Program-made: the position numbers and the translations under genes
Shown here: one piece after another, positions 10,373 to 31,656 of the stretch
Layout: each line of letters begins with the position of its first letter
How positions within the stretch are numbered: position 1 is the first letter of the stretch
The notes under the pieces: generated by a model
What the model was told of the DNA's origin: nothing
Database searches by the model: none
The model's input: only the letters and a program-made list of their open reading frames with translations
From: Candidatus Lokiarchaeum ossiferum
GTDB taxonomy: Archaea; Asgardarchaeota; Lokiarchaeia; Sigyniarchaeales; Promethearchaeaceae
Direction: 5' to 3'
NCBI GenBank assembly: GCA_025839675.1
Contig: CP104013.1
Coordinates: 840,001 to 872,000, forward strand
Length of the DNA stretch: 32,000 nt

Positions 10373-13300
10373 TTAAAGGAATAATTTCCCTTCTGAATAG
10401 ATTTCACTGATGAAAACAACATTTATGGTTGCATCAAATTGATAAATTTTTATTAAATCACCTTGAATTTTTTGAGTGACAACTTTTTTTTCTGTAGCCT
10501 TTTTTACATACCATTCATCGCCCCGAATCAAGCATTCTGGATAATTACTGCATTGATAGTAGACTTTTTTCTGAGTAACGACTTTAGTCATTTCTGCTTC
10601 ACATTTCTTGCAAAATACTTTCAATTCCCCTTTAGATTTCTCCCATTCTTTCATAATTTCAGCAATTCGCCTTTGCTTTTCTTCTTCTTGTTGGAGCTTT
10701 CGTTTTTCTTCTGCTTCCCTATCTTCATTTCGTCGTGATAAAATGGTTGATAATAAGTCTTCTTCAGATGAAGTTTCATCAATATTTTGAGAGAAATCGG
10801 TTTCAGATGAAGATTTTGAGGAAGATTCAGTTGTAATATTTGGAGATGGAGTGTTACTATTCATATCTTGATAGTATTTACAATCAAAGATGTTTTCCAT
10901 TTGCGCAGAATCTATTCCTCGAGGACAATTCACCATATTGCTACATGAAAAACATAACGGCGGTTTCTCTTCAGGGATTTCTTCTGGAGCATTCATATCA
11001 CGAAATTCTTTGCACGAAAAAATAGTTTCCATTTGATCCGAATCAATTCCCCTTGGACAATCAATCATATTACTACAGGAAAAACAAAGAGGCATCCCTG
11101 ATTCTTCTTCCGAATCAGCTTCTCCTGAAGAAGAACCAGACATAGTATCGTACTCATCACATTTCATACAAGATTCCATTTGAGATGAATCTAACCCTTT
11201 GGGACAATCCACCATATTTTTACATGAAAAGCAAAGAGGCATTCCATCAGAACTTTCATGCATTATTTTTGGTGAAGATTTTACAGTTGGCTGGGAATCA
11301 CTTCCAATGTCTATATCCCGAGATAACAATTCTAAGAGATCCATATCCGAATATTCATCATCTACTTCGATATTCAATTCTTCAATTATGGAATTTTCAC
11401 TTTTTAATTCAATTTTATCCCCTATTGTAGAATTTTTTGCTTCAAGAGCCGATTTTTCTTGTTTCTTGTTATATTCTGATAAAAAAAGTGTTGTATATTT
11501 ACTTCGATTCAATCTATATTGATCTAATTTTCCAAAACGATTGAGGGCACTTGTTTGTGAATACAAGGATTCAAAGAAGTCATCGGCATAGGGTATTTCA
11601 GTGAATTGAAACCCTTCCTCAATTTCAGAAGGAAGATTCTGACAGTCATGAGCGAAAAGATCATCAGTAATCTGAAAACAGTAAGGACATATATGCTTAA
11701 ATTTATAATGTTTTTTCTTTGCTTTGATGGGAGTTATTTGTTCTGATCCTTCCGAAAGGTCATCGAATTCGGATTTAATTTCTTTCTGGGCAATTTGCTC
11801 TGCCAGTTCATCATCATATATTGATTCAAATGTTTCCTTCAAAGATGGATTTTCTTGAGTAATCAGTTTATTATATAACTGAAAAAATAATGGGGTATAT
11901 TCAGTTCGATTTAACTTATTTTCATCCACAAAGCCCTTTCTCTGCCATGCGTTTATGGAATAATATAAATATAAGAAAAAGTCACTAAAACATGCTCGAA
12001 TGTCAAATTGAAATGTTTCAGGAACATCTTCAGGTAATTTTGAACATTTATGAAGACTTAAATCTTCTTCCGAGATATAACAATAAGGACAAATTTGCTT
12101 AACTCGATAATTTTTTACTTTTAAACTATCTAAAATGTTAAGTTTTTGTTCCACAAAAATTTCTTTGGGAACTCGAGAGGGTAACTCCTCTGTCACTCCT
12201 TCTACAAGAACATTTATTTCTTCAGATGTTCTCCTAGATACTATTTCTAAATCATTTGATTGTTTATTACCCGAACCTGAAAGAAATTGAGAATATTCAT
12301 AAGAAAAGAGAGATGAATACTCAGATCTGTCAAATATAAAAAAATTGAGTATTCCTTTACTTGATAAAGAGCCTATCTTTTGGTAAATTTTTTCAAAAAA
12401 CTTTGCACTAAATAGCTGAATATCAAATTTAAAACCAGAAGGGATATGATCACAAGAATGACCAAATAGACATTCGTGTAGAGTATAACAATACGGGCAA
12501 ATCTGAGGTACGGTTGTCTTTTCTACATCTATACCCTTTTCTTCAATGATTTTTTCAATTTTACCCACTTTTTGTTTTAAAGAACTATAGTAACCAGTAA
12601 GATCATAAACTACGGGGTTATCTAGAGTTTCATTGTATTCTAAAGTTATATTTGGATCTTCACTCTTTTGAAGACGATTGTGAATGCGAATAAACATTTG
12701 AAGATATTTACGCCGATTAAGACGATATTGATCAATATGACCGTGTCGATTCAATCCATTAGAGTTTTTATATAAATCTTTAAAAAATGTAACTTGCGAG
12801 AGAAGTGCGGAATAAGAAAAATCAGGAGGAAGCTTTGCACACGTATGATTGACCAAATTAGTGGTGGATTTGTAGCAAAAAGGACAAATTTGATTCAGTT
12901 GTTGGAGTTTAAGAAGAGTTTGGCGCTCATCTTCCTTTTGTTTTTGTGCACGCTTTTCTTGAAGTTGTAAATTTTTACGTTTCTTTGCTTCAAGAAGTCG
13001 TTTCTGTTCTTCAGCAACTTTATGTCTTTCAATCAGTATTCGCTGTTTATAATCTTTGAATTTTTCCTCCTCCAAATAAGGAGGTTGGAAATATTTGGTA
13101 AACAAACGATTATATTTATTATGACTAAATTTATTGAAATCAATTTTTCCATATTTATTCAAAGCACCAATTTCACGGTACAATCGCCTGAAAAATTCAT
13201 AATCTTCTCCAAGATTTAGAGTGAATTTTATGTCGGGGGGTTTCTTATCACATTCATGGTCGTAAAGGGAATTGAATGATTCAAAACAGAAGGGACAAAT

Positions 13301-14194: not shown

Positions 14195-14432
14195 AGATCA
14201 ATTAAAGTAAAGGTTTTTCGTGAGCAATAAATACATTCATTTCTATTCCAGATACTTTTTTTTCTAATAATTCTAGGAATTTTTTTTCTAATAACCACAG
14301 TTATTGTGAAGATTTTGGAGCTTTCCTAAAAATTTTTACAATGAAAATTCCGATCTAACCACTTATGTCTTCAATAAAAACAATTTGAGAAAAATCAAAA
14401 TGAACTATTATTCTTAAAAACACATTAGTAAT

Positions 14433-16439
14433 TTAGAGGAACAACTTTCCATCAGAATATATCTCACTAACAGTGACTATATTTTTTAAATCATCGTATT
14501 GATAAAGAATTATTAAATCCCCATGCTCTATATGGGATACAATACCTTTTAAGACCGCTTGAGATATATACCAAGGATCAGCTTTGATTTTGCACTCGGG
14601 ATAGTTTGTACATCGATGAAAAATTTTTCGAGTGGTGACAATTTTGCTCATTTCGGCCTCACAGGAACTGCAAATTACTTTCAATTGTCCTCGATCTTGC
14701 TCCCAACGATTCATTATTTCTTTAAGTAAATCTTGTTTTTCTTCATTTGTAATTTTAATTTGAGCTTCTTCATGGATTGAAATGTCAATATTCTCCAGAT
14801 CTGCAAGATTCTGAAGATCTTCTTCTGCTTTATTTGGGATAATTTCTTCAGTGCGCTTTTTCTGTCGTTTAAATAATCGAAACCTATGGCGTTTTTTTTC
14901 AAGTTTCTTTTGAATTTCTTTTTCCAATTCTTCTTCAATTTCTTTTTGGATTGCATTTTCCCGATCTTCTCGATTCGTTTCTGTTTCTTTAAAAGCATGG
15001 CATTGAAAGACTTGTTCCATTTGTTCAGAATTTAAATTAAGAGGACAATTATCTATATGGGTGCAAATCCCACAAATTGAAATATCAGATGGAACTATCG
15101 AAGATTTATATGAAGTTGTAGAAAAATTCATGTTTTCATATAAATCACAATCAAAAATAGTTTCCATTTGAGATGAATCTACACCTTTTGGACAATCCAT
15201 CATATGTGTACAGGAGAAACACCATGGCATCCCATCATCAGGGGGTGTTTTTAAGCCTATTTTTTCCTGAGTTGACAGAGCTTTAGCGGTTTTTGCAGGT
15301 AACCCGGTGAGATCATAATCTCGAGACATCATATCTAGAACATCCATATTGGACAAATCTTGATTATCCAGCTGTGAAAGATCCATGGTGAGATCAAGAT
15401 CTTCTTCATCCAAGCCATATAATGAATCGTGGAGTTTCTGCAACTTGAAATTATAAAATTGAAAGAATTCAGTCGAATAAGTCGACTGATTAATTTTTAT
15501 TAAGTCAGGAGTACCATTTGGAGTAGTGATGCGCAATTTTCGATATAAATCTTCGAAAAACAATTCTTCATTCAAAGCAGATTCAAAAGAAAACTCAGAA
15601 GGCATTTTTTCACATTTGTGATCTCTTAAAGAATGAATTACTTGCAAGCAATAGGGACATAAGACTTTTGAGGAAACAAAATTCTTCAGAGTGTCCTTTT
15701 TAGCCTTTTCAAGGATTTCCTTTTCGAATTTTTCAAAACGGGATTTCTTGTGGGATGGAGTGGAATAATTTTTCTCCATTCGAGCTTTTTCTAATGAAGG
15801 CCCTTCCATCTCCATCATACGATCATAATAAGTGAAAAATAACAACCGATAAGCCGCAGTATTCAATTTATAAAGATCCACATTCTTTGAAGAACTCCAA
15901 GCATCAAGCTTTTTATAGAGAAATATGAAGAAATCGTTCGTGCATATTTTTTCTTGAAAATGGAAATCGGGAGATAACTCCTCGGGAAGGGAAGCACAAA
16001 CATGTTCAGATAAACTCGGAACACCTTCATAACAATATGGGCAGATCTGTTTTATAAAAATAGAAGGAGGAACTGATGAATTACGAGTAACAGAACTAGT
16101 TTCAGTTTTAGCAGGATTTTTGATAATCGGATCTGTAATTTTAAAAGAAGTTTCAATAGAAGCATCTATTTCTTTTTGATATGCCCGAAGAAATGCAATT
16201 TGGTACTTCACAGGATGAAGTTTATAAATATCAAAAGTTCCTTGATCTGATAATGCATCAGATTCTTTATATATATGCTTGAAAAATGAAGCATCATCGA
16301 TTTTTTTGGAAAACTGAAAATTTGGAGGAAGATCAAGGCATTGGTGCCCATAAAGAGAAAGAAAAGATTTAAAGCAAAAGGGACAAATTTGACGGTATTT
16401 TTTTAATTTTGATTCTTTTGACTCTTCATTTTTATCCAT
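14433..16439 (-). CDS. Cys-rich repeat protein, shorter paralog (3 CCHC modules, 2 four-Cys modules, topoisomerase-type Zn ribbon)
   Basis: 668-aa ORF with the same module order as the 1273-aa neighbour. It also has a Glu/Lys-rich segment before the terminal Zn ribbon and an identical-style C-terminus. Confidence 0.8.
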   Translation of the reverse strand: MDKNEESKESKLKKYRQICPFCFKSFLSLYGHQCLDLPPNFQFSKKIDDASFFKHIYKESDALSDQGTFDIYKLHPVKYQIAFLRAYQKEIDASIETSFKITDPIIKNPAKTETSSVTRNSSVPPSIFIKQICPYCYEGVPSLSEHVCASLPEELSPDFHFQEKICTNDFFIFLYKKLDAWSSSKNVDLYKLNTAAYRLLFFTYYDRMMEMEGPSLEKARMEKNYSTPSHKKSRFEKFEKEILEKAKKDTLKNFVSSKVLCPYCLQVIHSLRDHKCEKMPSEFSFESALNEELFFEDLYRKLRITTPNGTPDLIKINQSTYSTEFFQFYNFKLQKLHDSLYGLDEEDLDLTMDLSQLDNQDLSNMDVLDMMSRDYDLTGLPAKTAKALSTQEKIGLKTPPDDGMPWCFSCTHMMDCPKGVDSSQMETIFDCDLYENMNFSTTSYKSSIVPSDISICGICTHIDNCPLNLNSEQMEQVFQCHAFKETETNREDRENAIQKEIEEELEKEIQKKLEKKRHRFRLFKRQKKRTEEIIPNKAEEDLQNLADLENIDISIHEEAQIKITNEEKQDLLKEIMNRWEQDRGQLKVICSSCEAEMSKIVTTRKIFHRCTNYPECKIKADPWYISQAVLKGIVSHIEHGDLIILYQYDDLKNIVTVSEIYSDGKLFL
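14592..14672 (-). other. C4 zinc ribbon resembling the topoisomerase-type Zn finger
   Basis: CSSCEAEMSKIVTTRKIFHRCTNYPEC. Confidence 0.6.
15000..15230 (-). repeat. two type-B four-Cys modules
   Basis: GMPWCFSCTHMMDCPKGVDSSQMETIFDC and ISICGICTHIDNCPLNLNSEQMEQVFQC. Confidence 0.75.
15450..16385 (-). repeat. three tandem type-A CCHC modules
   Basis: QICPFCFKSFLSLYGHQC, QICPYCYEGVPSLSEHVC and VLCPYCLQVIHSLRDHKC, each followed by the (L/M)P-x-F-x-F and FF-x2-(I/L)Y segment. Confidence 0.8.
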
Positions 16440-17811: not shown

Positions 17812-18549
17812 TTATAATCGCATCGAATAAGGAATTAGGGCCCGTCGCATTATTTTACTATAAGAATAAAGCACAGAACGCATAGATTTTACAAGACTAA
17901 GGATTAATTCTCCTTTAATGCTAGTATAATAGTATTTCAACAAAATCATGTCTGCTTTGTGATCATGTTCCTTAAGGTTTGTATTTATGATGGTTTTTAT
18001 CTCGGATAACCGTTCTTCCCTAATATCTTCATCAATCAAATCTATTTTATGGAGAAATACATTAAATTGAGCTTTTGGTGCAACCAATGATTTCGAGTTT
18101 AATGCTTCTATTAGATCTTCCAAAATTTGATCCTTAAATTTATCAAACTGACTGATATCCATTACAAAGATGATAGAATCAGATTCACCAAAAGCTTGCT
18201 CTTGATCTAACCCAAGCCAACGTTCTATTTCTTGACCCGCAGAATCTGCAACCCCTGCTGAAACATCCAACCAATTATAGGTATAATTTTCAATTCCTCG
18301 AGTTGGTTCCAAAGGATCATCAATCAAGGTTTGTGGACTTGAGTCTTCGAAAAACACACTCCGTATAGTAGATTTTCCTGCTGCGGGGGGACCAATGAAC
18401 AATATTCGCCTGATCGATTCATCTTCATTTGCAATTCCGAGCATTCGCATTAAAAAAGCATCGGTAGGCTCCCCTTCTTCCTTATTGGCATCAATTAATT
18501 CAGCCACTTTTTTCGAGACTTCAATTGAGACCTTTTCTTCTTCTGTCAT
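17812..18549 (-). CDS. Rag/Gtr1-family small GTPase with about 45-aa N-terminal extension
   Basis: 245-aa ORF with G1 GPPAAGKST, G3 DSAGQE and G4 LHKID (HKxD is the Rag/Gtr1 variant of NKxD). Blocks GKSTIRSVFF, FLHKIDLIDEDIRE and YYTSIKGELILSLVKSMRSVL parallel RagA GKTSMRSIIF, LVHKMDLVQEDQRD and [21 protein letters not shown] (recalled from memory). Confidence 0.7.
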   Translation of the reverse strand: MTEEEKVSIEVSKKVAELIDANKEEGEPTDAFLMRMLGIANEDESIRRILFIGPPAAGKSTIRSVFFEDSSPQTLIDDPLEPTRGIENYTYNWLDVSAGVADSAGQEIERWLGLDQEQAFGESDSIIFVMDISQFDKFKDQILEDLIEALNSKSLVAPKAQFNVFLHKIDLIDEDIREERLSEIKTIINTNLKEHDHKADMILLKYYYTSIKGELILSLVKSMRSVLYSYSKIMRRALIPYSMRL

Positions 18550-20402: not shown

Positions 20403-22184
20403 TTAGAGAATTGCAACACCAAAACCACCAATCAACTCACCAGCTACTTGACTGATCACAATAATCTCTAAACCCGCAATAATATAATATTGAGACAAGT
20501 ATTTGGTAACTTTCATCCAAGTACCTCGTTGAGGAATAATTATGGCCAGACAAGCGTAAATTGGCATAGTTAAATAATAGATGGTGAAATACAAATCAGT
20601 AAAAAATGCAGGAGGTGGTTTACCTAACTGTAAATTCATCCCTTGGACATCTTGCAGAGCACCCATTGTGACATTCAATAGGAAAAGAACATCTTTCATA
20701 AAGATCATAATCCCAATATTAATAATAGTGAGCATCAGTAAAGTCCCTTTGAAGACCCCAATTACCTGCTGCCTATCCCGACGGAGCTTCAATATTTTTT
20801 CAACATTGGTTGAGATAAATTTGGATATTATTTCGGTATTACCTCCTATATCTAAACTAGAAGTAAAAATTCGAAGAAAACGATCAATAATACTGCTGGA
20901 TGTGCTATCAGAAAACCATTGCCACGCAATAATCGGATCAATCCCAAATTTTGATTGGGTGTATAATAATTTAATATCAGTAGTCAAAGGACCAAATTGT
21001 TCCCGAGAGATGATGTTAACAGAATCAAAAATGCTTCCTCCTAATAATGCTGTTGTAGCGCCCAAAGTGCGAATAAAAACGGGGAAATTAGCATCCCGTC
21101 GTTTTATAATATCTTCAAATTTTTCAGCAACATAACCAGGATAAAACATGGAGATTCCAAATATGATCATGAAAACTGGGAGAGAGATCACAGAATTACC
21201 GTCAGCATCTTTTAGAAAGAAAGTAATGAATGCCAAAATTGGCATGAAAACAAAAACACAGATTAAAAAGGAATAAAGAACTTTTTCGTACTCAGCGGTT
21301 TTCCTTTGAATATTCACCAAACCATCTTTGGGGGAGATCGCATAAAAGGCAACCATAAGAGCAATATAAACAAGTTCTATTACCCCCAAAATGAGAAATA
21401 AATTCCGAGTATTGGCAGCTTCATCACTTCCAAAAAGAAACATCATCAAAAGAAAGGTAATAGATATAAAACTCAATGAAGTGGAAAGTGCGGTAAACAT
21501 ATCGTTAAGTACCTCAAGGGATTTCAACTTGCGAGTATAATCCGAAATATAACCGTTTAAAACCGATTGCTGTTCTTTTAAGAAATAATCTTCTAAATTT
21601 TCACCCGCATCCAAAGCTTGGGAAAAACGGGAGAGAAAATCACCAAATCTGGAACTTGCTGTCGTAGCACTTACTTTTTTAATGCTATCTAAATATCCAA
21701 GATTCCACTCTTTCGCCATGGTACGAATTCGTTTTACCTCTAAAGCAATTAGTCCAAAAGATTTTTCCCGACGACTTACATTCTCAAAAAGTTGATCTCG
21801 ACTAGCTTTTGAGGTAGAAATACCACCCATATAGGTAACAAGCATAGGAAGAGCAGTATCAATTTGTTCTTGACGTAAAGAGCGTTTAAAATAGGGAAAG
21901 ATAAAAACTATAATGAATCCAAGAAAAAAACATGAAATTGATAAAGGAAAAATTATCCCAGAAATCATAGGGCTCATTTCCAATAAAATTCCGATGATTA
22001 TTCCGGACCCTAGACCACCCACTGTAATAGGGAGAAGAATTTTAAATAAATATTCACCTATGGATTTCTGTATTCCTGCTTGGATTAGTGTTTGTTGGAA
22101 CGAATCAACAAGTTTCCGATAAACATCTTGCATTGTTTCTTTGAAACTTTGTTTTTTATTCTCTTCGTCTCGTTTTTCCATCAT
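20403..22184 (-). CDS. arlJ: archaellum membrane platform protein ArlJ (FlaJ)
   Basis: 593-aa polytopic membrane protein with two TadC/GspF-like halves. The size and the position directly after arlI are typical of FlaJ. Confidence 0.8.
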   Translation of the reverse strand: MMEKRDEENKKQSFKETMQDVYRKLVDSFQQTLIQAGIQKSIGEYLFKILLPITVGGLGSGIIIGILLEMSPMISGIIFPLSISCFFLGFIIVFIFPYFKRSLRQEQIDTALPMLVTYMGGISTSKASRDQLFENVSRREKSFGLIALEVKRIRTMAKEWNLGYLDSIKKVSATTASSRFGDFLSRFSQALDAGENLEDYFLKEQQSVLNGYISDYTRKLKSLEVLNDMFTALSTSLSFISITFLLMMFLFGSDEAANTRNLFLILGVIELVYIALMVAFYAISPKDGLVNIQRKTAEYEKVLYSFLICVFVFMPILAFITFFLKDADGNSVISLPVFMIIFGISMFYPGYVAEKFEDIIKRRDANFPVFIRTLGATTALLGGSIFDSVNIISREQFGPLTTDIKLLYTQSKFGIDPIIAWQWFSDSTSSSIIDRFLRIFTSSLDIGGNTEIISKFISTNVEKILKLRRDRQQVIGVFKGTLLMLTIINIGIMIFMKDVLFLLNVTMGALQDVQGMNLQLGKPPPAFFTDLYFTIYYLTMPIYACLAIIIPQRGTWMKVTKYLSQYYIIAGLEIIVISQVAGELIGGFGVAIL

Positions 22185-22220
22185 ATATCAGTTTGATTTG
22201 GTTATTTGACCATGATTAAC

Positions 22221-24008
22221 TTAGAGTGCGGCATCGTCTTCTTCCTTCATACGCCGTTTCATTGTATCTACTACTTCTTGAGGTAATTTCTTTTTGTTTT
22301 TATAAGTGGTTAATATTCGAAAGATAGTATGGTAATTTTGAATTCCAAGTTCTCCAAACGCTTCTAGGATATGTCGTTTCGTGCGTAATTCGTCATAGAG
22401 CATTTTAATATCTTTTCGTTTTATTCCCCGTTTGACTGCGATTTTTTGTTCAAATACATAGGATTGATTTCTAAATATATGAGTATCATCCCCTGCATCC
22501 CATGCAAAAAGCTCAACATACCTAAATTTATCTTTTTTTGGAAGATAATCAACTAATTCATTGCAAGAAATGCAACGACGTAATAATTTTCCCGTTTTTC
22601 CTTGAACTGCCATTTGTATATAGACAAGATCAAGTAAAGCAATAAATGCAGGAGGGACATTAATAGGCTTCCCAGTCATACGATTCACAAATGCTCGTAC
22701 ACTACCAGCGTGGAAAGTAGCAACCATCGGGTGACCAGTTTGCATTGCTTGAAAAGCCATGTTTCCTTCTTCACCACGAATTTCTCCAATAATTATTAAA
22801 TTTGGACGTTGTCTGAGAGCTGCCTTTACAAGAAGAAAAATATCCACGGGATTTCCAGCTGAAGCAGGACGGGTGACTTCTCGAGTCCAATTTTGGTGAG
22901 GCACTTTTACTTCTGGAGTATCTTCAATACTTACGATTTTTGCATTAGGTCCAATAAAAGTGAGTAAGGCATTCAAAGAGGTCGTTTTTCCAGATGCAGT
23001 TTCACCAACAACCATCATAGAATGATGAGATTCCAGGGTCATCCATAAATATGCACATAATTGGGAACTAAGAGTGCCCCATCCAATAAGATTGACTACA
23101 CTGATAACATCTTCACTAAACTTACGGATTGTGAAATTTGATCCATGCATGGACACATCTGTTCCATAGACGATATTAATACGAGAGCCATCGGGTAAAG
23201 CAGCATCAACCACAGGATTGGAGTGGCTCGCAGGACGTCCAGAACGTTCGCTAAGATATAGGGCAAACAAATCAAGTTCTTCATCCGTTTCAAATATAAT
23301 GGTACTTTCAAGAGATTCAAAGATTTTATGTTCTACAAAGAGTGGACCTTTCCCATTACAAGTTATATCTTCAATATATGGATCATTAATTAGTGGTTGG
23401 AGTTTTCCTAAACCAATCTTATTACGAATAAAATAATAACGGACCCGTTCAGCGACGACGGGATCGAGCTTCAATTTGGAACTCTGTTTCAATTTGGACA
23501 GCAATTTCAAAATTGGATTTGAAGAATCTGTTTTTTCATAGGAAGTTCCTGATCCTCCACCACCGATGGAAGTATCAATTATACGAGCAGCAAACTTGTC
23601 ATATAATTTAATATGATCTTCTTTATTCTCTGGAATATCATTGTACTTAATCAAAGAGGTTAAGGTGGACATAATTTTTTCTTGAGCATCTGTAGTAGCT
23701 TGATTTAATGTAGGTTCTATTGAAGAATATAAGATTCTGGAAGGCCCGGGATAAATATGTATAAATACAGGTCCATCTGCAGGGTATAAAACATTGGGAT
23801 ATTCCAATTTTTTATGCTTGCGCTCTAATTTTTCAATATATACAGGCACCCCAATTTCTTCATTGTAGTTCTGAATTAAATAGTCCAGTACATGAGGGTA
23901 TTTGGCAGTAATTTGCCTTAATACAACATTTTGATTAATTTTGGCTTCTGCTTGGGCCATTTCTTGCGTGGACATTGTTTCTGTCATGTTTAATTCAGCA
24001 TTCAACAA
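22221..24008 (-). CDS. arlI: archaellum assembly/motor ATPase ArlI (FlaI)
   Basis: 595 aa. Walker A is VVGETASGKTTSLNALL, followed by VSIEDTPEV, Walker B/Asp box LIIIGEIRGEE and His box ATFHAGS. This is a type II/IV secretion ATPase of the FlaI type. Confidence 0.9.
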   Translation of the reverse strand: MLNAELNMTETMSTQEMAQAEAKINQNVVLRQITAKYPHVLDYLIQNYNEEIGVPVYIEKLERKHKKLEYPNVLYPADGPVFIHIYPGPSRILYSSIEPTLNQATTDAQEKIMSTLTSLIKYNDIPENKEDHIKLYDKFAARIIDTSIGGGGSGTSYEKTDSSNPILKLLSKLKQSSKLKLDPVVAERVRYYFIRNKIGLGKLQPLINDPYIEDITCNGKGPLFVEHKIFESLESTIIFETDEELDLFALYLSERSGRPASHSNPVVDAALPDGSRINIVYGTDVSMHGSNFTIRKFSEDVISVVNLIGWGTLSSQLCAYLWMTLESHHSMMVVGETASGKTTSLNALLTFIGPNAKIVSIEDTPEVKVPHQNWTREVTRPASAGNPVDIFLLVKAALRQRPNLIIIGEIRGEEGNMAFQAMQTGHPMVATFHAGSVRAFVNRMTGKPINVPPAFIALLDLVYIQMAVQGKTGKLLRRCISCNELVDYLPKKDKFRYVELFAWDAGDDTHIFRNQSYVFEQKIAVKRGIKRKDIKMLYDELRTKRHILEAFGELGIQNYHTIFRILTTYKNKKKLPQEVVDTMKRRMKEEDDAAL

Positions 24009-24150
24009 TTCTCATGGAATTCATATTGAAGATGTAGAAATTGTTTCTAACCATCCAAGTAACCCTTTTTACTATATATTTGGGTTTTTAGAAATTTCTT
24101 CACAAAAAAATCAATTTTTTTATCTTAATTGAAAGAAAAAATGAAATAAT

Positions 24151-24912
24151 TTAAGCCGCAGAAATAACTGAAACCGCAATTCCAAAGGCAGAATCAATAT
24201 TAAAGACAATTAATTGAGATATTTCATCTTGTGCTAACCATTTTAAAACTGAACACGCTTTGAAGGCCGTTCCATCTTCTTCTCGCTGTTCAAATCGAAG
24301 AATTAAGTCACATAAATTCATAAAATTTAATTCGATATAGTCATATAACTCGGGGAAGTAAGTTGGAATAGTAATAATGACTGTTTTTCCACCAATGGTT
24401 AATCTTTTACACAATTCAAAGAAAAACATTACTTGTTTAGGATCAAAATTCTTTCCGACAAAATAAGTCAGGGAATCAATAATAATCACTTCGCTTTCAA
24501 TGTTGGATATTAGATCAATTAACTTAAACATTACATCAGGAGTACGTAGAACTTTTCCTGATTGAGACACAACAGGAATAATGTCAAACTGTCCAGTTAA
24601 AAAGAAATCTTCTGCTCTTTCCCAAGATAGAGAGAACATATTTTGCACTAAACCTTTGACTGTCATCTCACTTGTGATATAGGAAACGGTCTTTCTACAT
24701 CGCAAAGCACCATAAGCAATTTGTTGACACCATACAGACTTCCCTGCCCCCATATCCCCAGCAAATACTGCAAGAGATCCACATTTTACTCCACCCCCCA
24801 GATTTCGATCCAATTCTTCATTCGTTGTGAGGAAATATTCGGAGAAATCTTTTTCTGGCCCTTTTTTTTCTTCTTTATCTGCAAATGATTCCATAATTCT
24901 GTTTCCTCGCAT
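24151..24912 (-). CDS. arlH: archaellum KaiC/RecA-like ATP-binding protein ArlH (FlaH)
   Basis: 253 aa with Walker A FAGDMGAGKSVWCQQIAYG and a hydrophobic strand plus Asp (VIIIDSL). It sits between the F/G-like genes and arlI. Confidence 0.85.
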   Translation of the reverse strand: MRGNRIMESFADKEEKKGPEKDFSEYFLTTNEELDRNLGGGVKCGSLAVFAGDMGAGKSVWCQQIAYGALRCRKTVSYITSEMTVKGLVQNMFSLSWERAEDFFLTGQFDIIPVVSQSGKVLRTPDVMFKLIDLISNIESEVIIIDSLTYFVGKNFDPKQVMFFFELCKRLTIGGKTVIITIPTYFPELYDYIELNFMNLCDLILRFEQREEDGTAFKACSVLKWLAQDEISQLIVFNIDSAFGIAVSVISAA

Positions 24913-24927
24913 TAATTCGTAATGATC

Positions 24928-25464
24928 TTATGATAGGGTGTTATAAATAAATGAATCTCCGACCCCATTAGGGGTTGAAATTCGGTAATAATAGTATTGC
25001 TCCGCTATTGTTACATTAAACGTAATTGTGATATTTAAAAGCTCATGAGGATCCCAATAAGTGGGATTGTGGGACAAATCACCTAACATAGTAAACGACC
25101 AATAACATCCAGCACTGATAATTGCAGCACCTAAATTCGAACTGGGAATCCATCTATCATAGACATATGGCCCACAATCAAGAACTTGAGTGACATTTGT
25201 AAAAACATCCATAGAGTCCAATTGATAAATAATTTCTGTTCCAATATTTTCTATCACTAAATTAATAGCCATTTCAGAAGGATCGCGCGAAGCATTAATT
25301 AATTGAATGCTTGTATGGATGCGAGAAAATTCCCGATCGTAATTGTTTTCCTGAGCTTCTGTTATCAATTCATTAGAACTTTGAAAAGCTGAATAAAGCA
25401 TAGATCCCACTAACAGAGTACAAAGAAATAACATTCCAAAGGAAATTGATACTGATTGTCCCAT
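24928..25464 (-). CDS. ArlF/ArlG-family archaellum stator/periplasmic protein
   Basis: 178 aa with an N-terminal hydrophobic helix (ISFGMLFLCTLLVGSMLYSAF) and a beta-rich domain containing LVIENIGTE..MDVF, as in FlaF/FlaG proteins. I cannot tell F from G by eye. Confidence 0.6.
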   Translation of the reverse strand: MGQSVSISFGMLFLCTLLVGSMLYSAFQSSNELITEAQENNYDREFSRIHTSIQLINASRDPSEMAINLVIENIGTEIIYQLDSMDVFTNVTQVLDCGPYVYDRWIPSSNLGAAIISAGCYWSFTMLGDLSHNPTYWDPHELLNITITFNVTIAEQYYYYRISTPNGVGDSFIYNTLS

Positions 25465-25499
25465 TTTTTTTCAAGTTTTTTTTATGTTCAAAGAAAATT

Positions 25500-25979
25500 T
25501 CAAATTGAAAATTGATAAATTTCACTAATTCCTGATATAGCGATAACTATTTGATGAGAACCAGAATTAATTGACTCACCATCAGGAAAATACATGCGAA
25601 CTATAATTGTCTCGAGTGGATCCCAAATATTGTTTCCATTGTCGTTCAAGATAGTTGCATTCCATCGAAAAAGACTTGTGTCCGCACTGTCAAGGTAATA
25701 ATAGTCCCCATCTAAGAAGACATCCATTTCAGAGAAGGACCCCACAGATGCATCCCCAAGATTCTTCACATAACCATATATTGTTGAATTCCCCGCTTCT
25801 GTGTTTCCTATAGCAAGTACTTCAAAATCAGTATTAATTTGATTAGCAAAATTTTGACCGCTGTTGTTAATTGATGCACCTATTGCAGCCGCTACAGTAA
25901 AAGCCGCTGCGATGACAACTATAGTTGTTACAATCGACGCTGTAGACATTATTCCAGTTGATACTGCATTATCACTCAT
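25500..25979 (-). CDS. ArlG/ArlF-family archaellum protein
   Basis: 159 aa with an N-terminal helix IVTTIVVIAAAFTVAAAIGA and then YVKNLGDASVGSFSEMDVFLDG, the FlaG/FlaF-type N-x-G ... D-V-(F/I)-x-D-G block. It is the first gene of the operon. Confidence 0.6.
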   Translation of the reverse strand: MSDNAVSTGIMSTASIVTTIVVIAAAFTVAAAIGASINNSGQNFANQINTDFEVLAIGNTEAGNSTIYGYVKNLGDASVGSFSEMDVFLDGDYYYLDSADTSLFRWNATILNDNGNNIWDPLETIIVRMYFPDGESINSGSHQIVIAISGISEIYQFSI

Positions 25980-26144: not shown

Positions 26145-27554
26145 ATGACAGAAGCAAAAGATTTATTATTAGTTTGGATCGGTCAAGCGGGAGTAAATAT
26201 TGCCGAAAGATTTTGGGCATATGCATATGAAACGCTAGGTATTCCAGTACCAATCAAAACGGGAGATATTCCCGCAGACATTGATAAGATGCTCGATAAG
26301 AAGTTAGAAATGACAGAATTCTATACAGAATACGAAATTGAAGAAGCACGTCGGATGTTCTTCTACAATCTGCTAGATGATAAAGATCGAGCTAGTAATA
26401 AACAAAAAAAATATATCCCGCGATCTATTTTTATTGATTTGGAAGCCCAACCAGTTCGGAGTTTTCATGAACGAAATTCCCATATTTTTCCAAAGGATGA
26501 TTTTATCTACAATACATTCGGATCTCATTCAATGTGGGCACGGGCCAAGCGTATTGGTACCAATTTAAAACCATACATCCTTGATCGAATTCAATCTCTT
26601 ATTCAAATGCGTGCGATTCAAAACTTAGAAGGCATAATAATAATTCATGCAACGGGAGGTGGAGCAGGATCTGGACTTCTTGATAGTGTATTTGAAGTTC
26701 TGCAAGATAAGTTCCCAAAAGTCCCTACCCTCACTTTTTCAATTTTTCCAAGTCGAAAACTCAGTGGAAATGTTATTGAAGCATATAATACAATTTATGC
26801 AGCAAACAGTTTATTAGCAAATGCAAGTGCAACAGTGTTACTTGACAATGATAAAATAATTAATTTGGTAAAAGAAAAATATCAGATTGAATCACCCACT
26901 TATGAAGATATTAATATGATAATCTCTCGGTTAATATTCAGTGTGATTATGCAAATTGCAATGCCTGGTGCCATCATTCGGGCGGATTTCAATAAATTAT
27001 TCACAAATTTAGTACCCTACAAATACATGAAATTTTTGTTAGCAGGTATTGCTCCCTTTAAATTTGATGAATTTTCTCAAAATTCTACAGAAGATCTAGT
27101 GAAAGAGCTCACTGATGAGCAGAATTATATGGCCGATGTAAACTTTGGTACAGGTAAATATGTATCTACCATGTATTTCTTCATGGGAAAACTAGGTCCT
27201 GAAGTGAAAACTCCTCTCCGAATTGCCAAAGAAAATATGGATTTTATGCCATGGATTCCGACTGGTATGTTCATAGGAATTACTCCACGAGAAAAAATGA
27301 CCCTTGATGGGATGCCTCTTTTACGTCAAGGAATTGTTTTAGCAAATAATTCGGCAATGCGGTTTATATTTCAAAGAACTATGGCACAATTTCAAGTGAT
27401 GTTTAATAAAGGTGCATTTATGCACCATTTTAAGAAAGAAAACATAGATGCGGAAAAAGAATTGAAACAAGCCGCAGCCAATATTACACGAATGATGAAA
27501 TTTTATGAGATTGCAGAAAAATCTACAACTAAAAAACGAACTGTTAAATCCTAA
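26145..27554 (+). CDS. tubulin-family GTPase (bona fide tubulin-like, not FtsZ/CetZ-like)
   Basis: 469 aa. Block-by-block correspondence to eukaryotic tubulin:
- VWIGQAGVNIAERFW / IQAGQCGNQIGAKFW
- KYIPRSIFIDLEAQP / KYVPRAILVDLEPGT
- HATGGGAGSGLL / HSLGGGTGSGMG (T4 signature)
- VIEAYNTIY...VLLDNDKI / VVEPYNATL...CIDNEAL
- FTNLVPYKYMKFLLAGIAPF / [20 protein letters not shown]
- FMPWIPTG / FVEWIPNN
- NNSAMRFIFQRTMAQFQVMFNKGAFMHHF / [30 protein letters not shown]. Confidence 0.9.
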   Translation: MTEAKDLLLVWIGQAGVNIAERFWAYAYETLGIPVPIKTGDIPADIDKMLDKKLEMTEFYTEYEIEEARRMFFYNLLDDKDRASNKQKKYIPRSIFIDLEAQPVRSFHERNSHIFPKDDFIYNTFGSHSMWARAKRIGTNLKPYILDRIQSLIQMRAIQNLEGIIIIHATGGGAGSGLLDSVFEVLQDKFPKVPTLTFSIFPSRKLSGNVIEAYNTIYAANSLLANASATVLLDNDKIINLVKEKYQIESPTYEDINMIISRLIFSVIMQIAMPGAIIRADFNKLFTNLVPYKYMKFLLAGIAPFKFDEFSQNSTEDLVKELTDEQNYMADVNFGTGKYVSTMYFFMGKLGPEVKTPLRIAKENMDFMPWIPTGMFIGITPREKMTLDGMPLLRQGIVLANNSAMRFIFQRTMAQFQVMFNKGAFMHHFKKENIDAEKELKQAAANITRMMKFYEIAEKSTTKKRTVKS

Positions 27555-28763: not shown

Positions 28764-29531
28764 GTGAATCATATGTCTGTACAAATCGAGGATATTTCTA
28801 ATACCTATATTATGACAAAATCAGAAACTTTGTTTAAGATTTTGCAAGCGTTGAGCTTTAAGGGTGGTAGTTCAAGCACATCTTCATTAAAAATTGCTGT
28901 AATGCTGGATGATAACATTATCGCCGCAGCTTTGAAGGGTGGAGAACTTTTAAAATTCATTGAAAAAGATGAAGATGAATACGCCCTCACAGCTGAAGGT
29001 GAACGAATTTTAGAAGTCAGTAAAAAAGAACAACAAGATATGGTGGCTAAAAGCTATTATGCTATTGAGGGCTATCGAGATATTGTTTTTCGCATGAAAA
29101 TGGCAAGCAATCAGATGCAAATGAAAGAACTTGAAAAAGCATTCTATATATTGGAAAAAGATATGCGTGATGAACTAAGAAAAGTAATTGTTGATAGTTT
29201 TATAGATTTTGGTCTTTATGCAAATGTTTTAGAAACTAATAATAATGCAGCCAATCCAGGAGTTTTATTAACCGCTAATGGAGTTTCGCAATTAGATGCA
29301 GTATTAGCAGCGAAAAAACGCAAACGTAAGGGAGGTACTGCCCCCACAGCAGCCAGTTCTGGTGGAGGCATTGTAAGTGATTTATCTTGTCAATCTTGTG
29401 GAAAAGCGATTATGCCAGACTTTGCCATGTGCCCCTATTGCGGTACTGCGTTAAAACGTTCCTGTAGCAATTGCGGTAAGGAATTACAACCAGGCTGGAA
29501 AATGTGTCCCTTCTGTGGAACCGGACAATAA
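28764..29531 (+). CDS. winged-helix-like protein with C-terminal double zinc ribbon
   Basis: 255 aa with GTG 28764 or ATG 28773 as start. The C-terminus CQSCGKAIMPDFAMCPYCGTALKRSCSNCGKELQPGWKMCPFCG gives four CxxC pairs, i.e. two zinc ribbons (DZR-like). The N-terminus LFKILQALSFKGG...LKFIEKDEDEYALTAEGERILE is wHTH-like. A KKRKRKG basic linker joins them. Confidence 0.65.
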   Translation: MNHMSVQIEDISNTYIMTKSETLFKILQALSFKGGSSSTSSLKIAVMLDDNIIAAALKGGELLKFIEKDEDEYALTAEGERILEVSKKEQQDMVAKSYYAIEGYRDIVFRMKMASNQMQMKELEKAFYILEKDMRDELRKVIVDSFIDFGLYANVLETNNNAANPGVLLTANGVSQLDAVLAAKKRKRKGGTAPTAASSGGGIVSDLSCQSCGKAIMPDFAMCPYCGTALKRSCSNCGKELQPGWKMCPFCGTGQ

Positions 29532-29679
29532 TCAATCACATCCTAAGGAATGTTTTGTCTTTATTCTTTTTTCTCTTTTATTAACAGGTCTTGCATTTAT
29601 TTCCAAAAACAATTCTAAAATCCATATATATATATCTTCCAAACATCTTATTAAGTAGAGGTTTTAGTAGAGGCTTTCC

Positions 29680-31656
29680 ATGAGTATTGGCGCAGATGAT
29701 AAAGATGATCTTTTGTTTATCTTCATTGGTCAACGAGGACTTCAAATCGGTAGTATCTTCTTTAATTTAATTAAGGACGATTATAAAGGAAAGCGATATG
29801 ATATTTTGGATTTTTTTTCCAAGGTATTTTTTATTTGTGAAACCGAAAGTCAATTCCGAGAAATTGGAACCATGATAGAAGGATATGTTCCCGAAGAAAA
29901 TGTGCTTTTAATGGGAGAATTAAATACAAGCGGAGATTTATGGTCAAATATTGAAGAAAATGACGATATATTCGCAAGTAGAGTTTTTGCTCCATTAATG
30001 TACGCTGTTGATCAACTCGCAAAGCCAAATATTCTTCTTTTTTATGACCTTTCAAATGGAAAACAAGCAGGAATTTGTGATTATTTATTGATCAATTTTC
30101 CTTTAGTAAAACAACAAATGCCAATCTATGTGATTGCCACAACATCTATCGATGAAGGAGCAGGTGCTTTATCTATTTATTGGAGTATTTTAGGGCTAAA
30201 CTCGATCATTCAAGGATCCACAGCAAAAGCTTGTATTCTATTAGATTATGAAGCAATTGGAAATTCAATTTTTCTAAAACGAATTAAGAAAATGGATGAT
30301 ATTGATTTTGAGAGTTATAACTATGTTGTAGCCCAATTAATTTACTCCATCACATATTATGATAGAGAACCATATTCAAATGCTGTGCCATTTTGTCAAA
30401 TGATTGATAAACTCGTGATTTTCAATGACATGAAATTCATCATTCCCTTCATGACAATGCCTCGTCGTGAATTGATCGAAGATGAAACGTTTTCGGGCTA
30501 TTTAAACGAGTTGGTAAATGATTGCAACCTATTTTCAATGAATTATAAACGCCCCATAGATGAAAATGGCGTTGAACAAGATTATCCTAAAATTAGTCTC
30601 GCTAATGCATTTATTGCCTTTGGGGAAAAACAAGATACACACTATCTAAACTTAATCCGGAATAATTTACCTCCGATCATGGAATATTTGCCTGGCACTA
30701 AAACGTTTTATACATATCCCCGCGGGGACCCTTTCTCCGTTTTTTTAGAGAATAATACAGTTGTTCGTCAATATTTTCAAGACCTTTTGGAGAAATTTGA
30801 TATTCTTATCTCCCATCATTCTTATCTACATGTTCTTGAGGATTTAGGAATCACCGTAGATTCATTTTCGGATGCCTTAGACAAATTGGTCTCAATAGTG
30901 GATGCATACCAAGAAAGTGAGGATCTGCTCTATGATGATGAAGAATTCGATTATGAAGAAGAAATATCCAAGTATGATCAACCTGTTGATGAAGAGGAAG
31001 AACTAAAACGAAAGTATGGAGATACTACAGAAGGCACTTTAGAAGGAGAAATATCTGAGAAAATAAAGGGAATAAGCGACGCAAATGATCCTGAAAATAA
31101 TGAATTTCAAGGAGAAGAAGGAAGCAAACCAGAAATTTCTTCACCAAAAACTGATGCTTCGGAAGATTCAATAAATAAAACACCAAAATTGGATAAAACT
31201 CAAATCATTAGAACAAAAGATGATGAAATCAATGATATTGATAAATTATCACAAAATATTGACGCCAAATCAATTTCAAACTTAAATGAACAAGCAATAA
31301 AACAAAATCCACGAAGATCCCGTCCAACTCGCACTCTGAAATTACAAAAAGCCGATCCAATTTTAGTCTCAAGGGAAGGAGGTCGAATTGTGAAAGAAGA
31401 AAAACCAGATAAAGCGGAAGGAAGCGCTTTAGGTTGGTTAGAAATGCGTGCCAATAAGGAAAAAGAAAAAGTTCAGCAAGAGAAGGCTGAAATCACCAGA
31501 GAACGAGAACGCATTGAACTTGAAAAACGCGAATTTGAAGAAGCACAAGAACTCATTCGGTTAGAAGAAGAGAAGAAAACCCAAGAAGAAACGGAAAAAA
31601 CATTAAAGAAAAAAGAAGAACTGAAAGAATTAGCTAAAATGTTTGAAAATCTATAG
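29680..31656 (+). CDS. divergent tubulin-family paralog with degenerate GTP-binding signature and long acidic/coiled-coil C-terminal extension
   Basis: 658 aa. The tubulin-like core spans about aa 1-410, with these correspondences to eukaryotic tubulin:
- IFIGQRGLQIGSIFF / IQAGQCGNQIGAKFW
- YVPEENVLLMGE / YVPRAILVDLEP
- ILLDYEAIGN / CIDNEALYD
- YNYVVAQLIYSIT / LNHLVSATMSGVT
- ENNTVVRQYFQDLLEKFDILISHHSYLHVL / [30 protein letters not shown]
The T4 position reads DLSNGKQAG instead of GGGTGSG. An acidic stretch (ESEDLLYDDEEFDYEEE) follows, then about 230 aa of low-complexity and K/E-rich heptad sequence. Confidence 0.75.
   Translation: MSIGADDKDDLLFIFIGQRGLQIGSIFFNLIKDDYKGKRYDILDFFSKVFFICETESQFREIGTMIEGYVPEENVLLMGELNTSGDLWSNIEENDDIFASRVFAPLMYAVDQLAKPNILLFYDLSNGKQAGICDYLLINFPLVKQQMPIYVIATTSIDEGAGALSIYWSILGLNSIIQGSTAKACILLDYEAIGNSIFLKRIKKMDDIDFESYNYVVAQLIYSITYYDREPYSNAVPFCQMIDKLVIFNDMKFIIPFMTMPRRELIEDETFSGYLNELVNDCNLFSMNYKRPIDENGVEQDYPKISLANAFIAFGEKQDTHYLNLIRNNLPPIMEYLPGTKTFYTYPRGDPFSVFLENNTVVRQYFQDLLEKFDILISHHSYLHVLEDLGITVDSFSDALDKLVSIVDAYQESEDLLYDDEEFDYEEEISKYDQPVDEEEELKRKYGDTTEGTLEGEISEKIKGISDANDPENNEFQGEEGSKPEISSPKTDASEDSINKTPKLDKTQIIRTKDDEINDIDKLSQNIDAKSISNLNEQAIKQNPRRSRPTRTLKLQKADPILVSREGGRIVKEEKPDKAEGSALGWLEMRANKEKEKVQQEKAEITRERERIELEKREFEEAQELIRLEEEKKTQEETEKTLKKKEELKELAKMFENL

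Follow-up and report, generated by a model that had tools for sequence, protein, structure and literature searches.

The protein encoded at the right-hand end of the 32,000-nucleotide window of Candidatus Lokiarchaeum ossiferum analysed here, referred to below as X, is predicted from its sequence and from structural models to have a complete tubulin fold, and its pattern of conservation identifies it as a selected, pseudo-GTPase-like tubulin and not a decaying gene. We narrowly favour the interpretation that X is a fifth, extremely diverged lokiarchaeal tubulin, beside AtubA, AtubB, AtubB2, and AtubC, serving the Asgard microtubule system as a non-catalytic subunit or adaptor. The product of the open reading frame is identical to GenBank UYP44420.1 of Ca. 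Lokiarchaeum ossiferum, annotated as a hypothetical protein, with the gene and its core located in the window as follows:

29680..31656, + strand: X gene, divergent tubulin paralogue (658 aa, ATG start; UYP44420.1 / NEF87_000705)
29680..30924, + strand: predicted tubulin-fold core of X, aa 1-415, comprising the N-terminal nucleotide-binding-type domain, H7, the intermediate domain, and H11-H12 (from hhalign, AF2, Foldseek, and a dN/dS of 0.019)
30748..30924, + strand: S9/S10-H11-H12 region of X, aa 357-415, its best-conserved stretch relative to tubulins

A Pfam scan of X returned no tubulin model (PF00091 Tubulin, PF03953 Tubulin_C), even at E ≤ 1, and an NCBIfam scan was likewise blank, so homology is shown here by phmmer, profile searches, hhalign, and structure. 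Against the PDB, phmmer finds BtubB and beta-tubulin at E 1.4e-7, with BtubB the best match, the X family profile reaches E 1.3e-8, and hhalign aligns aa 9-415 of X with a profile of mixed tubulins at 99.4% (E 3e-21). Foldseek searches with two AF2 models of X returned only tubulins. The first model, built from seven family sequences only, shows the same fold at low confidence (pLDDT 51 in the C-terminal half), with an E of ~1e-9 and a TM of 0.6, and the second (pLDDT 72, pTM 0.81) matches beta/gamma-tubulin with an E of 4e-22, a TM of 0.80, and an rmsd of ~3.5 Å, values in which tubulin-likeness is partly built in, as the alignment used for this model contained real tubulins. Human gamma-tubulin (3cb2_A) gives a TM of 0.81, on par with beta-tubulins, and sequence identity in the Foldseek alignments with beta/gamma-tubulin is 12-17%; eukaryotic beta- and gamma-tubulin and BtubB are the closest to X among solved structures and sequences. 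The order of secondary structure elements in the AF2 model agrees with the two-domain fold of tubulin and FtsZ, with C-terminal helices at residues 362-378, 383-388, and 393-420, and X has both a segment of M-loop length and, after the intermediate domain, the tubulin-specific H11-H12 that is absent in FtsZ. The tubulin fold that a sequence-only reading of this DNA had proposed for aa 1-410 was thus recovered by phmmer, profile, hhalign, and Foldseek, and its C-terminal helices are indeed retained, with the well-conserved aa 357-415 (ENNTVVRQYFQDLLEKFDILISHHSYLHVL...) aligning to S9/S10-H11-H12 of tubulin.

In a comparison of nine X orthologues with 13 comparator tubulins, each nucleotide-contact motif of X departs from residues that are invariant in the comparators, the equivalent positions being:

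29728..29751, + strand: T1 equivalent GQRGLQIG, aa 17-24; G17, R19, and G20 invariant, Q18 variable among orthologues
29926..29949, + strand: T3 equivalent TSGDLWSN, aa 83-90, aligned to GAGNNWA with both Asn replaced
30052..30072, + strand: T4 equivalent SNGKQAG, aa 125-131, in place of GGGTGSG; only G127 and G131 kept
30244..30249, + strand: T6 equivalent D189-Y190, replacing an invariant Asp-Asn; Tyr invariant in the X family
30370..30399, + strand: T7/H8 equivalent PYSNAVPFCQ, aa 231-240, with Ala, Pro, and Gln where tubulins have Asn, Asp, and the catalytic Glu/Lys

The T1 signature GQxGxxIG had been described as retained, and FIGQRGLQIG is present at aa 15-24 of X, but its Gln, invariant in the 13 comparators, reads Q/H/T/S/Q/A/K/R/K across the nine orthologues. 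T3, previously thought not to be recognisable, can be aligned, with the Gly and Trp of GAGNNWA kept, the two Asn changed to Asp and to Leu/Val/Ile, and residues T83, G85, D86, W88, S89, and N90 invariant in X. The proposed replacement of the glycine-rich T4 loop by DLSNGKQAG holds, with hhalign and MAFFT placing SNGKQAG identically; the nine orthologues share [ST][NS]GxxAG, and the tubulin signature [SAG]GGTG[SA]G is absent. At the positions of T7 GxxNxD and of the Glu (alpha-type) or Lys (beta-type), the X orthologues carry [AML], Pro, and Q/D/H. A functional glycine loop elsewhere in X, sought as a check on the earlier claim, was not found either, with no conserved glycine-rich or P-loop-like motif in the rest of the core among the nine orthologues and two fragments; the earlier interpretation is supported on both counts, fold and loop. 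From these motifs we infer that X lacks canonical GTP binding or hydrolysis and is a pseudo-GTPase, as AtubB2 would be, which Wollweber et al. in 2025 reportedly describe as an Asgard paralogue without a nucleotide-binding site that substitutes for a canonical subunit.

A non-canonical ligand of X is possible, since two base-contact positions, F210 (at the position of Tyr224) and N214 (at that of Asn228; Asn in six orthologues and Asp in three), and four loop glycines (G17, G20, G127, and G131) are left. It is conceivable, if rather unlikely, that X still binds a nucleotide or small ligand in such a pocket, in which case it would be a regulated switch and not an inert subunit. No family member departs from the replacement residues that line the pocket (D86, W88, S89, N90, S125, G127, A130, G131, Y167, W168, D189, and Y190), which suggests selection on the pocket itself, the aromatic F210 and N214 persist, and the dN/dS of the core is 0.019, a value for which dS is saturated. 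However, the T1 Gln is variable, three of the five glycines of the T4 signature are gone, the Asp at an Asn position of T3 would repel phosphate, the Tyr at the Asn position of T6 could fill the base site, and X offers no alternative phosphate-binding loop.

The genes upstream of X on the same strand include a second tubulin and a winged-helix/zinc-ribbon protein, ZnR:

26145..27554, + strand: genuine tubulin of 469 aa, UYP44417.1, mis-named ‘CetZ’, probably AtubC (Pfam Tubulin 1.8e-34, and Tubulin_C)
28773..29531, + strand: ZnR, winged-helix and double-zinc-ribbon protein of 252 aa, UYP44419.1 (Pfam AAA_assoc_C/HTH_45 and DZR)

The 469-aa tubulin has Asgard AtubA/B as its nearest PDB relatives (E ~1e-56), with T1 (GQAG) and T4 (GGGAGSG) intact and Lys at the catalytic T7 position. 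AtubC is a lokiarchaeal tubulin clade whose genes lie no more than 10 kb from AtubAB in Lokiarchaeia (PMC13394414), and UYP44417.1 is probably AtubC, an assignment made by position alone. X is co-inherited with AtubC, ZnR, and the AtubB/AtubA pair in a fixed gene order, which in the lokiarchaeal loci, their context taken from exact-protein look-ups, runs archaellum-like operon (-), AtubC (+), ZnR (+), X (+), AtubB/A (-). This order is complete in the five fully covered loci (L003, L004, L009, L011, and L014), in which the AtubC-type tubulin is 460-475 aa long and 1.2-3 kb separate X from the AtubB/A pair, and it is matched up to the end of the available sequence in L. ossiferum and in four further loci on shorter contigs (L006, L008, L010, and L013); the 4.7 kb downstream of X in L. 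ossiferum showed no such pair. ZnR stands upstream of X in every locus covering that side, and immediately so except in L011, where a DDE transposase lies between the two. With nine close relatives of AtubC and seven of ZnR, both are distributed as narrowly as X. X appears to have a promoter-like TATA stretch of its own (29625-29636), and a T-rich stretch lies after the ZnR stop, so that co-transcription of X and ZnR is no more than a possibility.

X does not correspond to either of the additional Asgard tubulins with which it might be confused. An extra Asgard tubulin paralogue forms non-canonical 7-protofilament tubes (PMC12993045), and the AtubB2 gene is found ‘at a distant position’ from AtubAB (PMC13394414). 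AtubB2 and X share the concept of a nucleotide-free tubulin subunit in the same organism, but X has no identical or close PDB chain (the best being BtubB at the E of 1.4e-7 given above), lies inside the AtubC-AtubAB cluster, and differs in its 658-aa length, its 243-aa tail, and its lack of a Pfam tubulin match. With AtubC, X has in common the cluster, the strand, and a narrow phyletic range, and of the sub-family profiles compared by hhalign that of AtubC matches X best (95.5%, E 1.6e-8, compared with 72% for Lys-type and 51% for Glu-type tubulins), a ranking indecisive as to the origin of X because the profiles differ greatly in diversity. The description of the AtubC clade nevertheless fits the 469-aa neighbour, which passes both Pfam Tubulin and Tubulin_C where X fails, and the two proteins are only 17% identical in a joint MAFFT alignment and 21% in a BLASTP local alignment.

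As a non-catalytic structural subunit, X would dock by tubulin-type interfaces onto a tubulin of the cluster. Conserved synteny makes the 469-aa tubulin a candidate, and the likeliest partner, named from gene neighbourhood only, would be this adjacent, GTP-binding, Lys-type (beta-like) AtubC, with AtubA/B microtubules, contacted at their ends or along the lattice, as the alternative. A pair of X and AtubC may constitute a stable, non-hydrolysing unit for capping, nucleating, or anchoring, as neither would supply the catalytic T7 acid. That a tubulin can serve in templating or capping instead of elongation has its precedent in gamma-tubulin; no GCP-like genes were seen near X in the neighbourhoods inspected.

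X might instead act outside polymers, as a soluble tubulin-derived regulator (a sequestering factor, a chaperone, or a cofactor in the assembly of AtubC, AtubA, or AtubB) or as a Misato-like protein, and we assign this explanation a low probability. X is heavily altered in T7 and the plus-face loops, through which tubulins contact one another lengthwise in a protofilament, long disordered tails such as that of X are typical of hub and adaptor proteins, and association of X with a polymer is only a proposal. Misato/DML1, a degenerate eukaryotic member of the tubulin superfamily with a non-polymer role, resembles X in its eroded GTP-binding motifs, with a different architecture and taxon. Nevertheless, X has no match to the Misato families of Pfam (Misat_Tub_SegII and Tubulin_3, at E ≤ 1), its full tubulin fold, including H11-H12 and the segment of M-loop length, is under very strong constraint, and its gene keeps its position with genes for polymer-forming tubulins on either side.

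Beyond the core, X continues into a tail of 243 aa with the following elements:

30913..31002, + strand: acidic post-H12 segment ESEDLLYDDEEFDYEEEISKYDQPVDEEEE (ESEDLLYDDEEFDYEEE...DEEEE), aa 412-441, conserved across orthologues (dN/dS 0.039)
31015..31419, + strand: variable low-complexity linker, aa 446-580, differing widely in length and sequence among orthologues (dN/dS 0.31)
31276..31308, + strand: semi-conserved motif S-x-x-LNE-x-x-IK within the linker, aa 533-543, from the orthologue alignment
31426..31443, + strand: conserved [AVI][LI]xW[LVI] motif, ALGWLE, aa 583-588, with W586 invariant
31447..31617, + strand: highly charged helical segment, aa 590-646, its heptad periodicity not significant
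31618..31653, + strand: conserved C-terminal peptide ELKELAKMFENL, aa 647-658, with L648, L651, and F655 invariant

The motifs of the tail are conserved across orthologues at 42-95% identity. The acidic segment ending in DEEEE, which had been placed at 30910..30999, is present with a true span 3 nt further on (30913..31002), and is reminiscent of tubulin E-hooks. The long tail with a charged end is likewise confirmed, with the terminal ~76 residues (aa 583-658) of X 55% charged, and 51-59% D/E/K/R in seven family members. The heptad-like coiled coil suggested for this region is not upheld, as its periodicity was matched by 170 of 2000 shuffles, with variable results among orthologues; we have consequently lowered ‘coiled coil’ to ‘charged helix’, a charged single helix and a coiled coil being equally possible. 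Compared with beta/gamma-tubulin and BtubB, X has a far longer tail, with its charged helix and terminal peptide, in addition to degenerate GTP motifs. The tail would project from the outer surface at H12 as an acidic stretch, a flexible linker with short motifs, a charged helix, and a C-terminal peptide, and may serve as an integral tether to a further component, for which ZnR is the first candidate. The earlier reading regarded a MAP-like or tethering extension on a tubulin fold as unusual.

The same succession of folded core, disordered linker of variable length, and short conserved C-terminal peptide is found in FtsZ and TubZ, in which the peptide recruits partners (FtsA/ZipA/SepF or TubR). 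X differs from both in possessing H11-H12, in grouping with tubulins, and in lacking GTPase motifs and centromere-like repeats. ZnR and X could nonetheless be imagined as a cargo-coupling module of the TubR/TubZ kind, in which ZnR binds DNA or other cargo and also the C-terminal peptide of X, linking cargo to filaments for segregation or positioning. A winged-helix gene stands immediately upstream of a tubulin-fold gene, as in tubR-tubZ, the flexible tail ends in a conserved peptide, as in TubZ and FtsZ, and ZnR, which shares the distribution of X, has a basic KKRKRK patch. We consider this improbable, with no iteron or centromere-like arrays near the two genes at six loci (only chance-level two-copy repeats were detected), no Pfam Tubulin_2/TubZ match in X, and none of the GTPase motifs that drive the treadmilling of TubZ; by these features X and ZnR fall outside the TubZRC-type partition modules. 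Additionally, DNA binding by ZnR is putative, with its only PDB matches being weak ones (E ~0.1) to RNA-binding Zn-ribbon proteins.

The pre-eukaryotic origin of the microtubule cytoskeleton is at present best approached through Asgard microtubules (AtubA/B, AtubB2, and AtubC), and to our knowledge nothing is known of their nucleation, capping, anchoring, or cargo coupling. We suggest, as a speculative extension of the favoured subunit or adaptor role, that X could be the first archaeal tubulin-derived microtubule organiser, nucleotide-free, which caps, nucleates, or anchors mini-microtubules of AtubA/B(/C), with its tail and ZnR coupling these to DNA, membrane, or another filament. Were this so, X would functionally anticipate or parallel gamma-tubulin, or a fused MAP. 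If the subunit or adaptor role is correct, X would add a second, independent example of GTP binding being given up by a tubulin, and would show that the FtsZ and TubZ arrangement, a core extended by a long tail that binds partners, also occurs within the tubulin lineage proper. As X is conserved, strongly constrained, and encoded in the tubulin cluster of the cultivated L. ossiferum, its role is directly testable.

The X family is small, with seven clusters among 5.8e9 proteins, five representatives among 1.84e9, and zero matches of the family profile in 185,579 GTDB species genomes. Searches by accession, locus tag, and keyword found no paper on X, a check outside which Wollweber et al. 2025 lay, and having no Pfam tubulin match, X has probably been missed by published tubulin phylogenies. 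Intact orthologous open reading frames of 545-737 aa are present in eight lineages, with those in other loci 42-95% identical to X, and the family alignment contains at least 100 invariant columns. These intact orthologues, together with the dN/dS of the core, place the observation beyond chance, and as the replacement residues are themselves family-invariant and the core dN/dS is 0.02, X reads as a selected gene. A decaying duplicate of a cluster tubulin without a function of its own, or a chance similarity to tubulin, may be suggested by the loss of all catalytic and nucleotide motifs and by an unmatched ‘hypothetical protein’ annotation, but is scarcely credible and is ruled out for X by the intact orthologues and invariant columns, the core dN/dS of 0.019, and the hhalign match to the tubulin profile at E 3e-21.

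The reading frame at 29680..31656 (+), on chromosomal DNA of Candidatus Lokiarchaeum ossiferum, starts with ATG and encodes a 658-aa protein (X) identical to GenBank UYP44420.1 (NEF87_000705, 'hypothetical protein'), with zero tubulin-model matches in Pfam and NCBIfam scans. X matches the neighbouring 469-aa tubulin over 282 columns with 21% identity (BLASTP, E 1e-7), and BtubB, beta-tubulins and OdinTubulin among PDB sequences (phmmer, best E 1.4e-7), with a seven-sequence profile of the X family reaching a best E of 1.3e-8 against the PDB. Using hhalign and a mixed ten-sequence tubulin profile, residues 9-415 align to the entire tubulin chain (99.4%, E 3e-21). The AF2 model from family sequences only has a pLDDT of 51 and a pTM of 0.58, with tubulin-containing structures forming all of the top Foldseek matches listed (E ~1e-9, TM ~0.6). 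A second model, to which 14 real tubulins were added (pLDDT 72, pTM 0.81), matches beta- and gamma-tubulin with an E of 4e-22, a TM of 0.80 and an rmsd of ~3.5 Å, and is corroboration rather than independent proof, since the tubulins in the alignment shape its result in part. The fold proposed for residues 1-410 by the sequence-only reading is thus recovered by hhalign, profile search against the PDB and Foldseek, and the C-terminal helices it described are present as H11-H12, the best-conserved part of X. These helices set tubulins apart from FtsZ and CetZ. The lines of evidence from sequence and models agree in indicating a tubulin by fold and homology, and we regard X as almost certainly a tubulin paralog.

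The family is rare: among 1.84 billion representative proteins, searched exhaustively with a profile, five clusters only were recovered, followed by weak hits (8/10 of those scanned against Pfam being recognisable tubulins). In 5.8 billion proteins screened by word index, seven clusters of 42-100% identity were returned, all from Promethearchaeota and with names absent or 'hypothetical'. The sequences used comprise eight full-length proteins (545-737 aa), two of them recovered via neighbouring-gene look-ups, one N-terminal partial and two C-terminal fragments. A literature search found no paper on X, with an earlier notice in Wollweber et al. 2025 possible. A second L. ossiferum assembly (6.27 Mb; X = WP_371805016.1) carries at least one substitution relative to the window, in the tail at aa ~567 (window ~31380), where LQKADP reads LQKTDP.

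The nucleotide-contact loops (T1-T7) and helix H7 of nine X sequences (eight full-length and the N-terminal partial) were compared with those of 13 tubulins (AtubC, both AtubA/B types, gamma-tubulins and other representatives), the motif mapping being concordant between hhalign and a second MAFFT alignment.

Nucleotide-site motifs in tubulins and in the X family
T1: tubulins GQxG, Gln invariant; X family G-[Q/H/T/S/A/K/R]-R-G
T2: tubulins DLEP; X family CETE or variants
T3: tubulins G-A-G-N-N-W-A; X family T-x-G-D-[L/V/I]-W-S-N
T4: tubulins GGGTGSG; X family [ST]-[NS]-G-x-x-A-G (window protein SNGKQAG)
T5: tubulins SP..SD.VVEPYN; X family unrecognisable save Tyr167
T6: tubulins D-N; X family D-Y
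H7: tubulins Y..LN; X family F..Y[N/D]
T7: tubulins N-x-D-x-x-[E/K]; X family [A/M/L]-x-P-x-x-[Q/D/H]

Elsewhere in the core there is no conserved seven-residue window with at least three glycines and no P-loop-like pattern, and the earlier observation that T4 is replaced is therefore right. T3, previously called unrecognisable, is clear in the alignment, with both Asn replaced, whilst the retention of T1 holds for the window orthologue and not for the family, in which the Gln position varies. The replacement residues are themselves invariant across the family, and dN/dS against a 95%-identical orthologue is 0.019 in the core, 0.039 in the acidic stretch and 0.31 in the linker. The nucleotide-contact motifs are altered, the catalytic T7 residue is absent and purifying selection is strong, a pattern indicating a functional protein under constraint, its pocket remodelled, and not a decaying copy; a pseudogene or chance similarity is excluded by the hhalign match together with dN/dS. 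From the motifs we infer that X is nucleotide-free, and it probably lacks canonical GTP binding. Alternatively, the pocket may bind a non-canonical ligand, consistent with its invariant residues and the retention of F210 and N214.

X is closest in concept to AtubB2, reportedly a nucleotide-free Asgard tubulin, from which its sequence, length, architecture and location set it apart, and identity with AtubB2 was rejected as the PDB holds no close sequence to X. Its closest solved structures are beta-tubulin, gamma-tubulin and BtubB. Although X has the tubulin fold, it falls below the Pfam thresholds and lacks the T4 signature, a conserved T1 Gln, the T3 and T6 Asn and the T7 motif of the family, and is filed as a variant within the tubulin superfamily, outside any named clade.

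The tail after H12 comprises an acidic segment, linker, motifs, charged segment and terminal peptide common to the family. The acidic segment noted earlier (YQE[SCA]E..LY[DE]..E...) lies at aa 412-441 of the window protein, with a net charge of -10 over aa 416-445. The linker is highly variable in length and composition, as illustrated by the four tandem TSKPMTPS repeats of the 737-aa L009 orthologue (L009 11818..14031), and contains a semi-conserved SxxLNExxIK motif. An [AVI][LI]xW[LVI] motif with an invariant Trp opens a terminal segment of ~76 residues (D/E/K/R 51-59%), ending in a ELKELAKMFENL-like peptide with invariant L648, L651 and F655. The suggested coiled coil is unproven, because in a Fourier test the charged segment shows no clear excess of hydrophobic periodicity over shuffles at either 3.5 or 7 residues (at period 7 the window value was reached by 170/2000, with orthologues inconsistent); an ER/K-type single helix would be equally possible. 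FtsZ and TubZ recruit partners via a core, flexible linker and conserved terminal peptide. X is likewise built, and we tentatively suggest that its tail acts as a tether.

Independent contigs returned by exact-protein look-ups provided the genomic context, with the complete order read in L003, L004, L009, L011 and L014.

Gene order at X loci
1: archaellum/type-IV-pilus-like operon, minus strand
2: 460-475-aa tubulin, plus strand
3: zero to two small genes
4: ZnR, ~250-aa winged-helix and double-zinc-ribbon protein, plus strand
5: X, plus strand
6: gap of 1.2-3 kb
7: two tandem tubulins of 423-430 aa, minus strand

Four shorter contigs (L006, L008, L010, L013) have an identical order as far as they reach. 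Where readable in full (L003, L014), one tandem tubulin has the catalytic T7 Glu and the other Lys, and the two are the AtubA/AtubB pair. AtubA and AtubB are always tandem, with AtubC <10 kb away in Lokiarchaeia and the AtubB2 gene distant (PMC13394414). In L. ossiferum, X is followed by genes for a 101-aa protein and a 1101-aa membrane protein, and the 4.7 kb covered downstream does not extend to the AtubB/A pair. ZnR matches X in its narrow distribution, with seven clusters that share the contigs of X, and AtubC has nine close relatives; the AtubC-ZnR-X triad is co-inherited, given the matching narrow distributions and shared contigs. Synteny is fixed, X is co-distributed with its neighbours and its tail motifs are conserved.

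Further features of the cluster in the window
20403..25979 (-), archaellum/type-IV-pilus-like operon
26145..27554 (+), probable AtubC, UYP44417.1
27583..28473 (-), MaoC/FAS1-type dehydratase, between AtubC and ZnR
28764..29531 (+), ZnR ORF, likely true start ATG at 28773

The dehydratase, on the opposite strand, is restricted to genomes resembling L. ossiferum (window, L001, L004), being absent from L003, L009 and L014, and looks like a lineage-specific insertion. In a more distant lineage an inserted DDE transposase separates ZnR from X (L011), and X is followed, ahead of AtubB/A, by a large N6-methyltransferase/Eco57I-MmeI-like gene (L011, 947 aa) (transposase/methyltransferase features: L011 10106..11416, 13363..16206; L008 2528..4150; L006 3887..4471).

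The GenBank name of UYP44417.1, 'Tubulin-like protein CetZ', was rejected, since it passes the Pfam Tubulin and Tubulin_C thresholds and is a true tubulin; among PDB sequences it is most closely related to Asgard AtubA/B (E ~1e-56). The gene is probably AtubC by position, because AtubC lies <10 kb from AtubA/AtubB (PMC13394414). It keeps T1 (GQAG) and T4 (GGGAGSG), with a degenerate T3 lacking the Asn pair (GSHSMWA), and in T7 Lys at the catalytic position and Arg in place of Asn. Two further features of AtubC are an insertion of ~50 residues behind H1 (aa ~34-86) and a basic C-terminal tail (KSTTKKRTVKS), whose charge is the reverse of that of the acidic segment following H12 in X. ZnR ('DZANK-type domain-containing' in UniProt) combines an AAA_assoc_C/HTH_45-like winged helix, a double zinc ribbon and a KKRKRK basic patch, is encoded upstream of X wherever a locus covers that side and is confined to the same handful of genomes. 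By eye, the region 29560..29640 has a T-rich run after the ZnR stop codon and, ~45 nt ahead of the X start codon, a ATATATATATAT stretch (29625-29636), which could represent an archaeal terminator and a TATA-box promoter specific to X.

Most likely, X would be a non-catalytic tubulin subunit binding a cluster tubulin via tubulin-type interfaces, with physical association between them a matter of even chances. AtubC would be the prime candidate partner, being adjacent, with T1 and T4 kept and Lys at the catalytic position. Such a pair, without any catalytic T7 acid, could form a stable, non-hydrolysing unit, which would fit a cap, seed or anchor better than a dynamic polymer. The tail would exit where tubulin C-terminal tails sit on the outer microtubule surface, and would show its motifs to other components, ZnR being the obvious first candidate. 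X may instead be a soluble regulator or cofactor, never entering polymers. A TubR/TubZ-like cargo-coupling module of ZnR and X would agree with the upstream wHTH gene and conserved tail peptide, however no iterons were found near the genes in six loci and X is without GTPase motifs.

The pilus-like operon is divergent from AtubC in every locus examined (window, L003, L004, L009, L011, L013, L014), with AtubC orthologues of identity down to 44%, and contains two small flagellin/pilin-like genes, a KaiC/FlaH-like ATPase, a FlaI-like T2SSE ATPase and a FlaJ-like T2SSF membrane protein; a functional link to the tubulin cluster is possible. A Gtr1/RagA-family small GTPase of eukaryotic-signature type is conserved at its far end in several loci.

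Other features
17812..18549 (-), Gtr1/RagA-family GTPase (also L003 261..992; L009 239..970; L013 593..1360)
3192..7460 (+), 1422-aa ORF, essentially without Pfam annotation
10373..14194 (-), 1273-aa ORF, Pfam C-terminal Top1-type C4 zinc ribbon only
14433..16439 (-), 668-aa ORF, Pfam C-terminal Top1-type C4 zinc ribbon only
9272..10279 (-), 335-aa protein with a C-terminal HTH_11 domain

The last of these also matches an ATG16-like coiled-coil model weakly, scoring 32.7 bits (E 1e-7), below the cutoff of 33.7.
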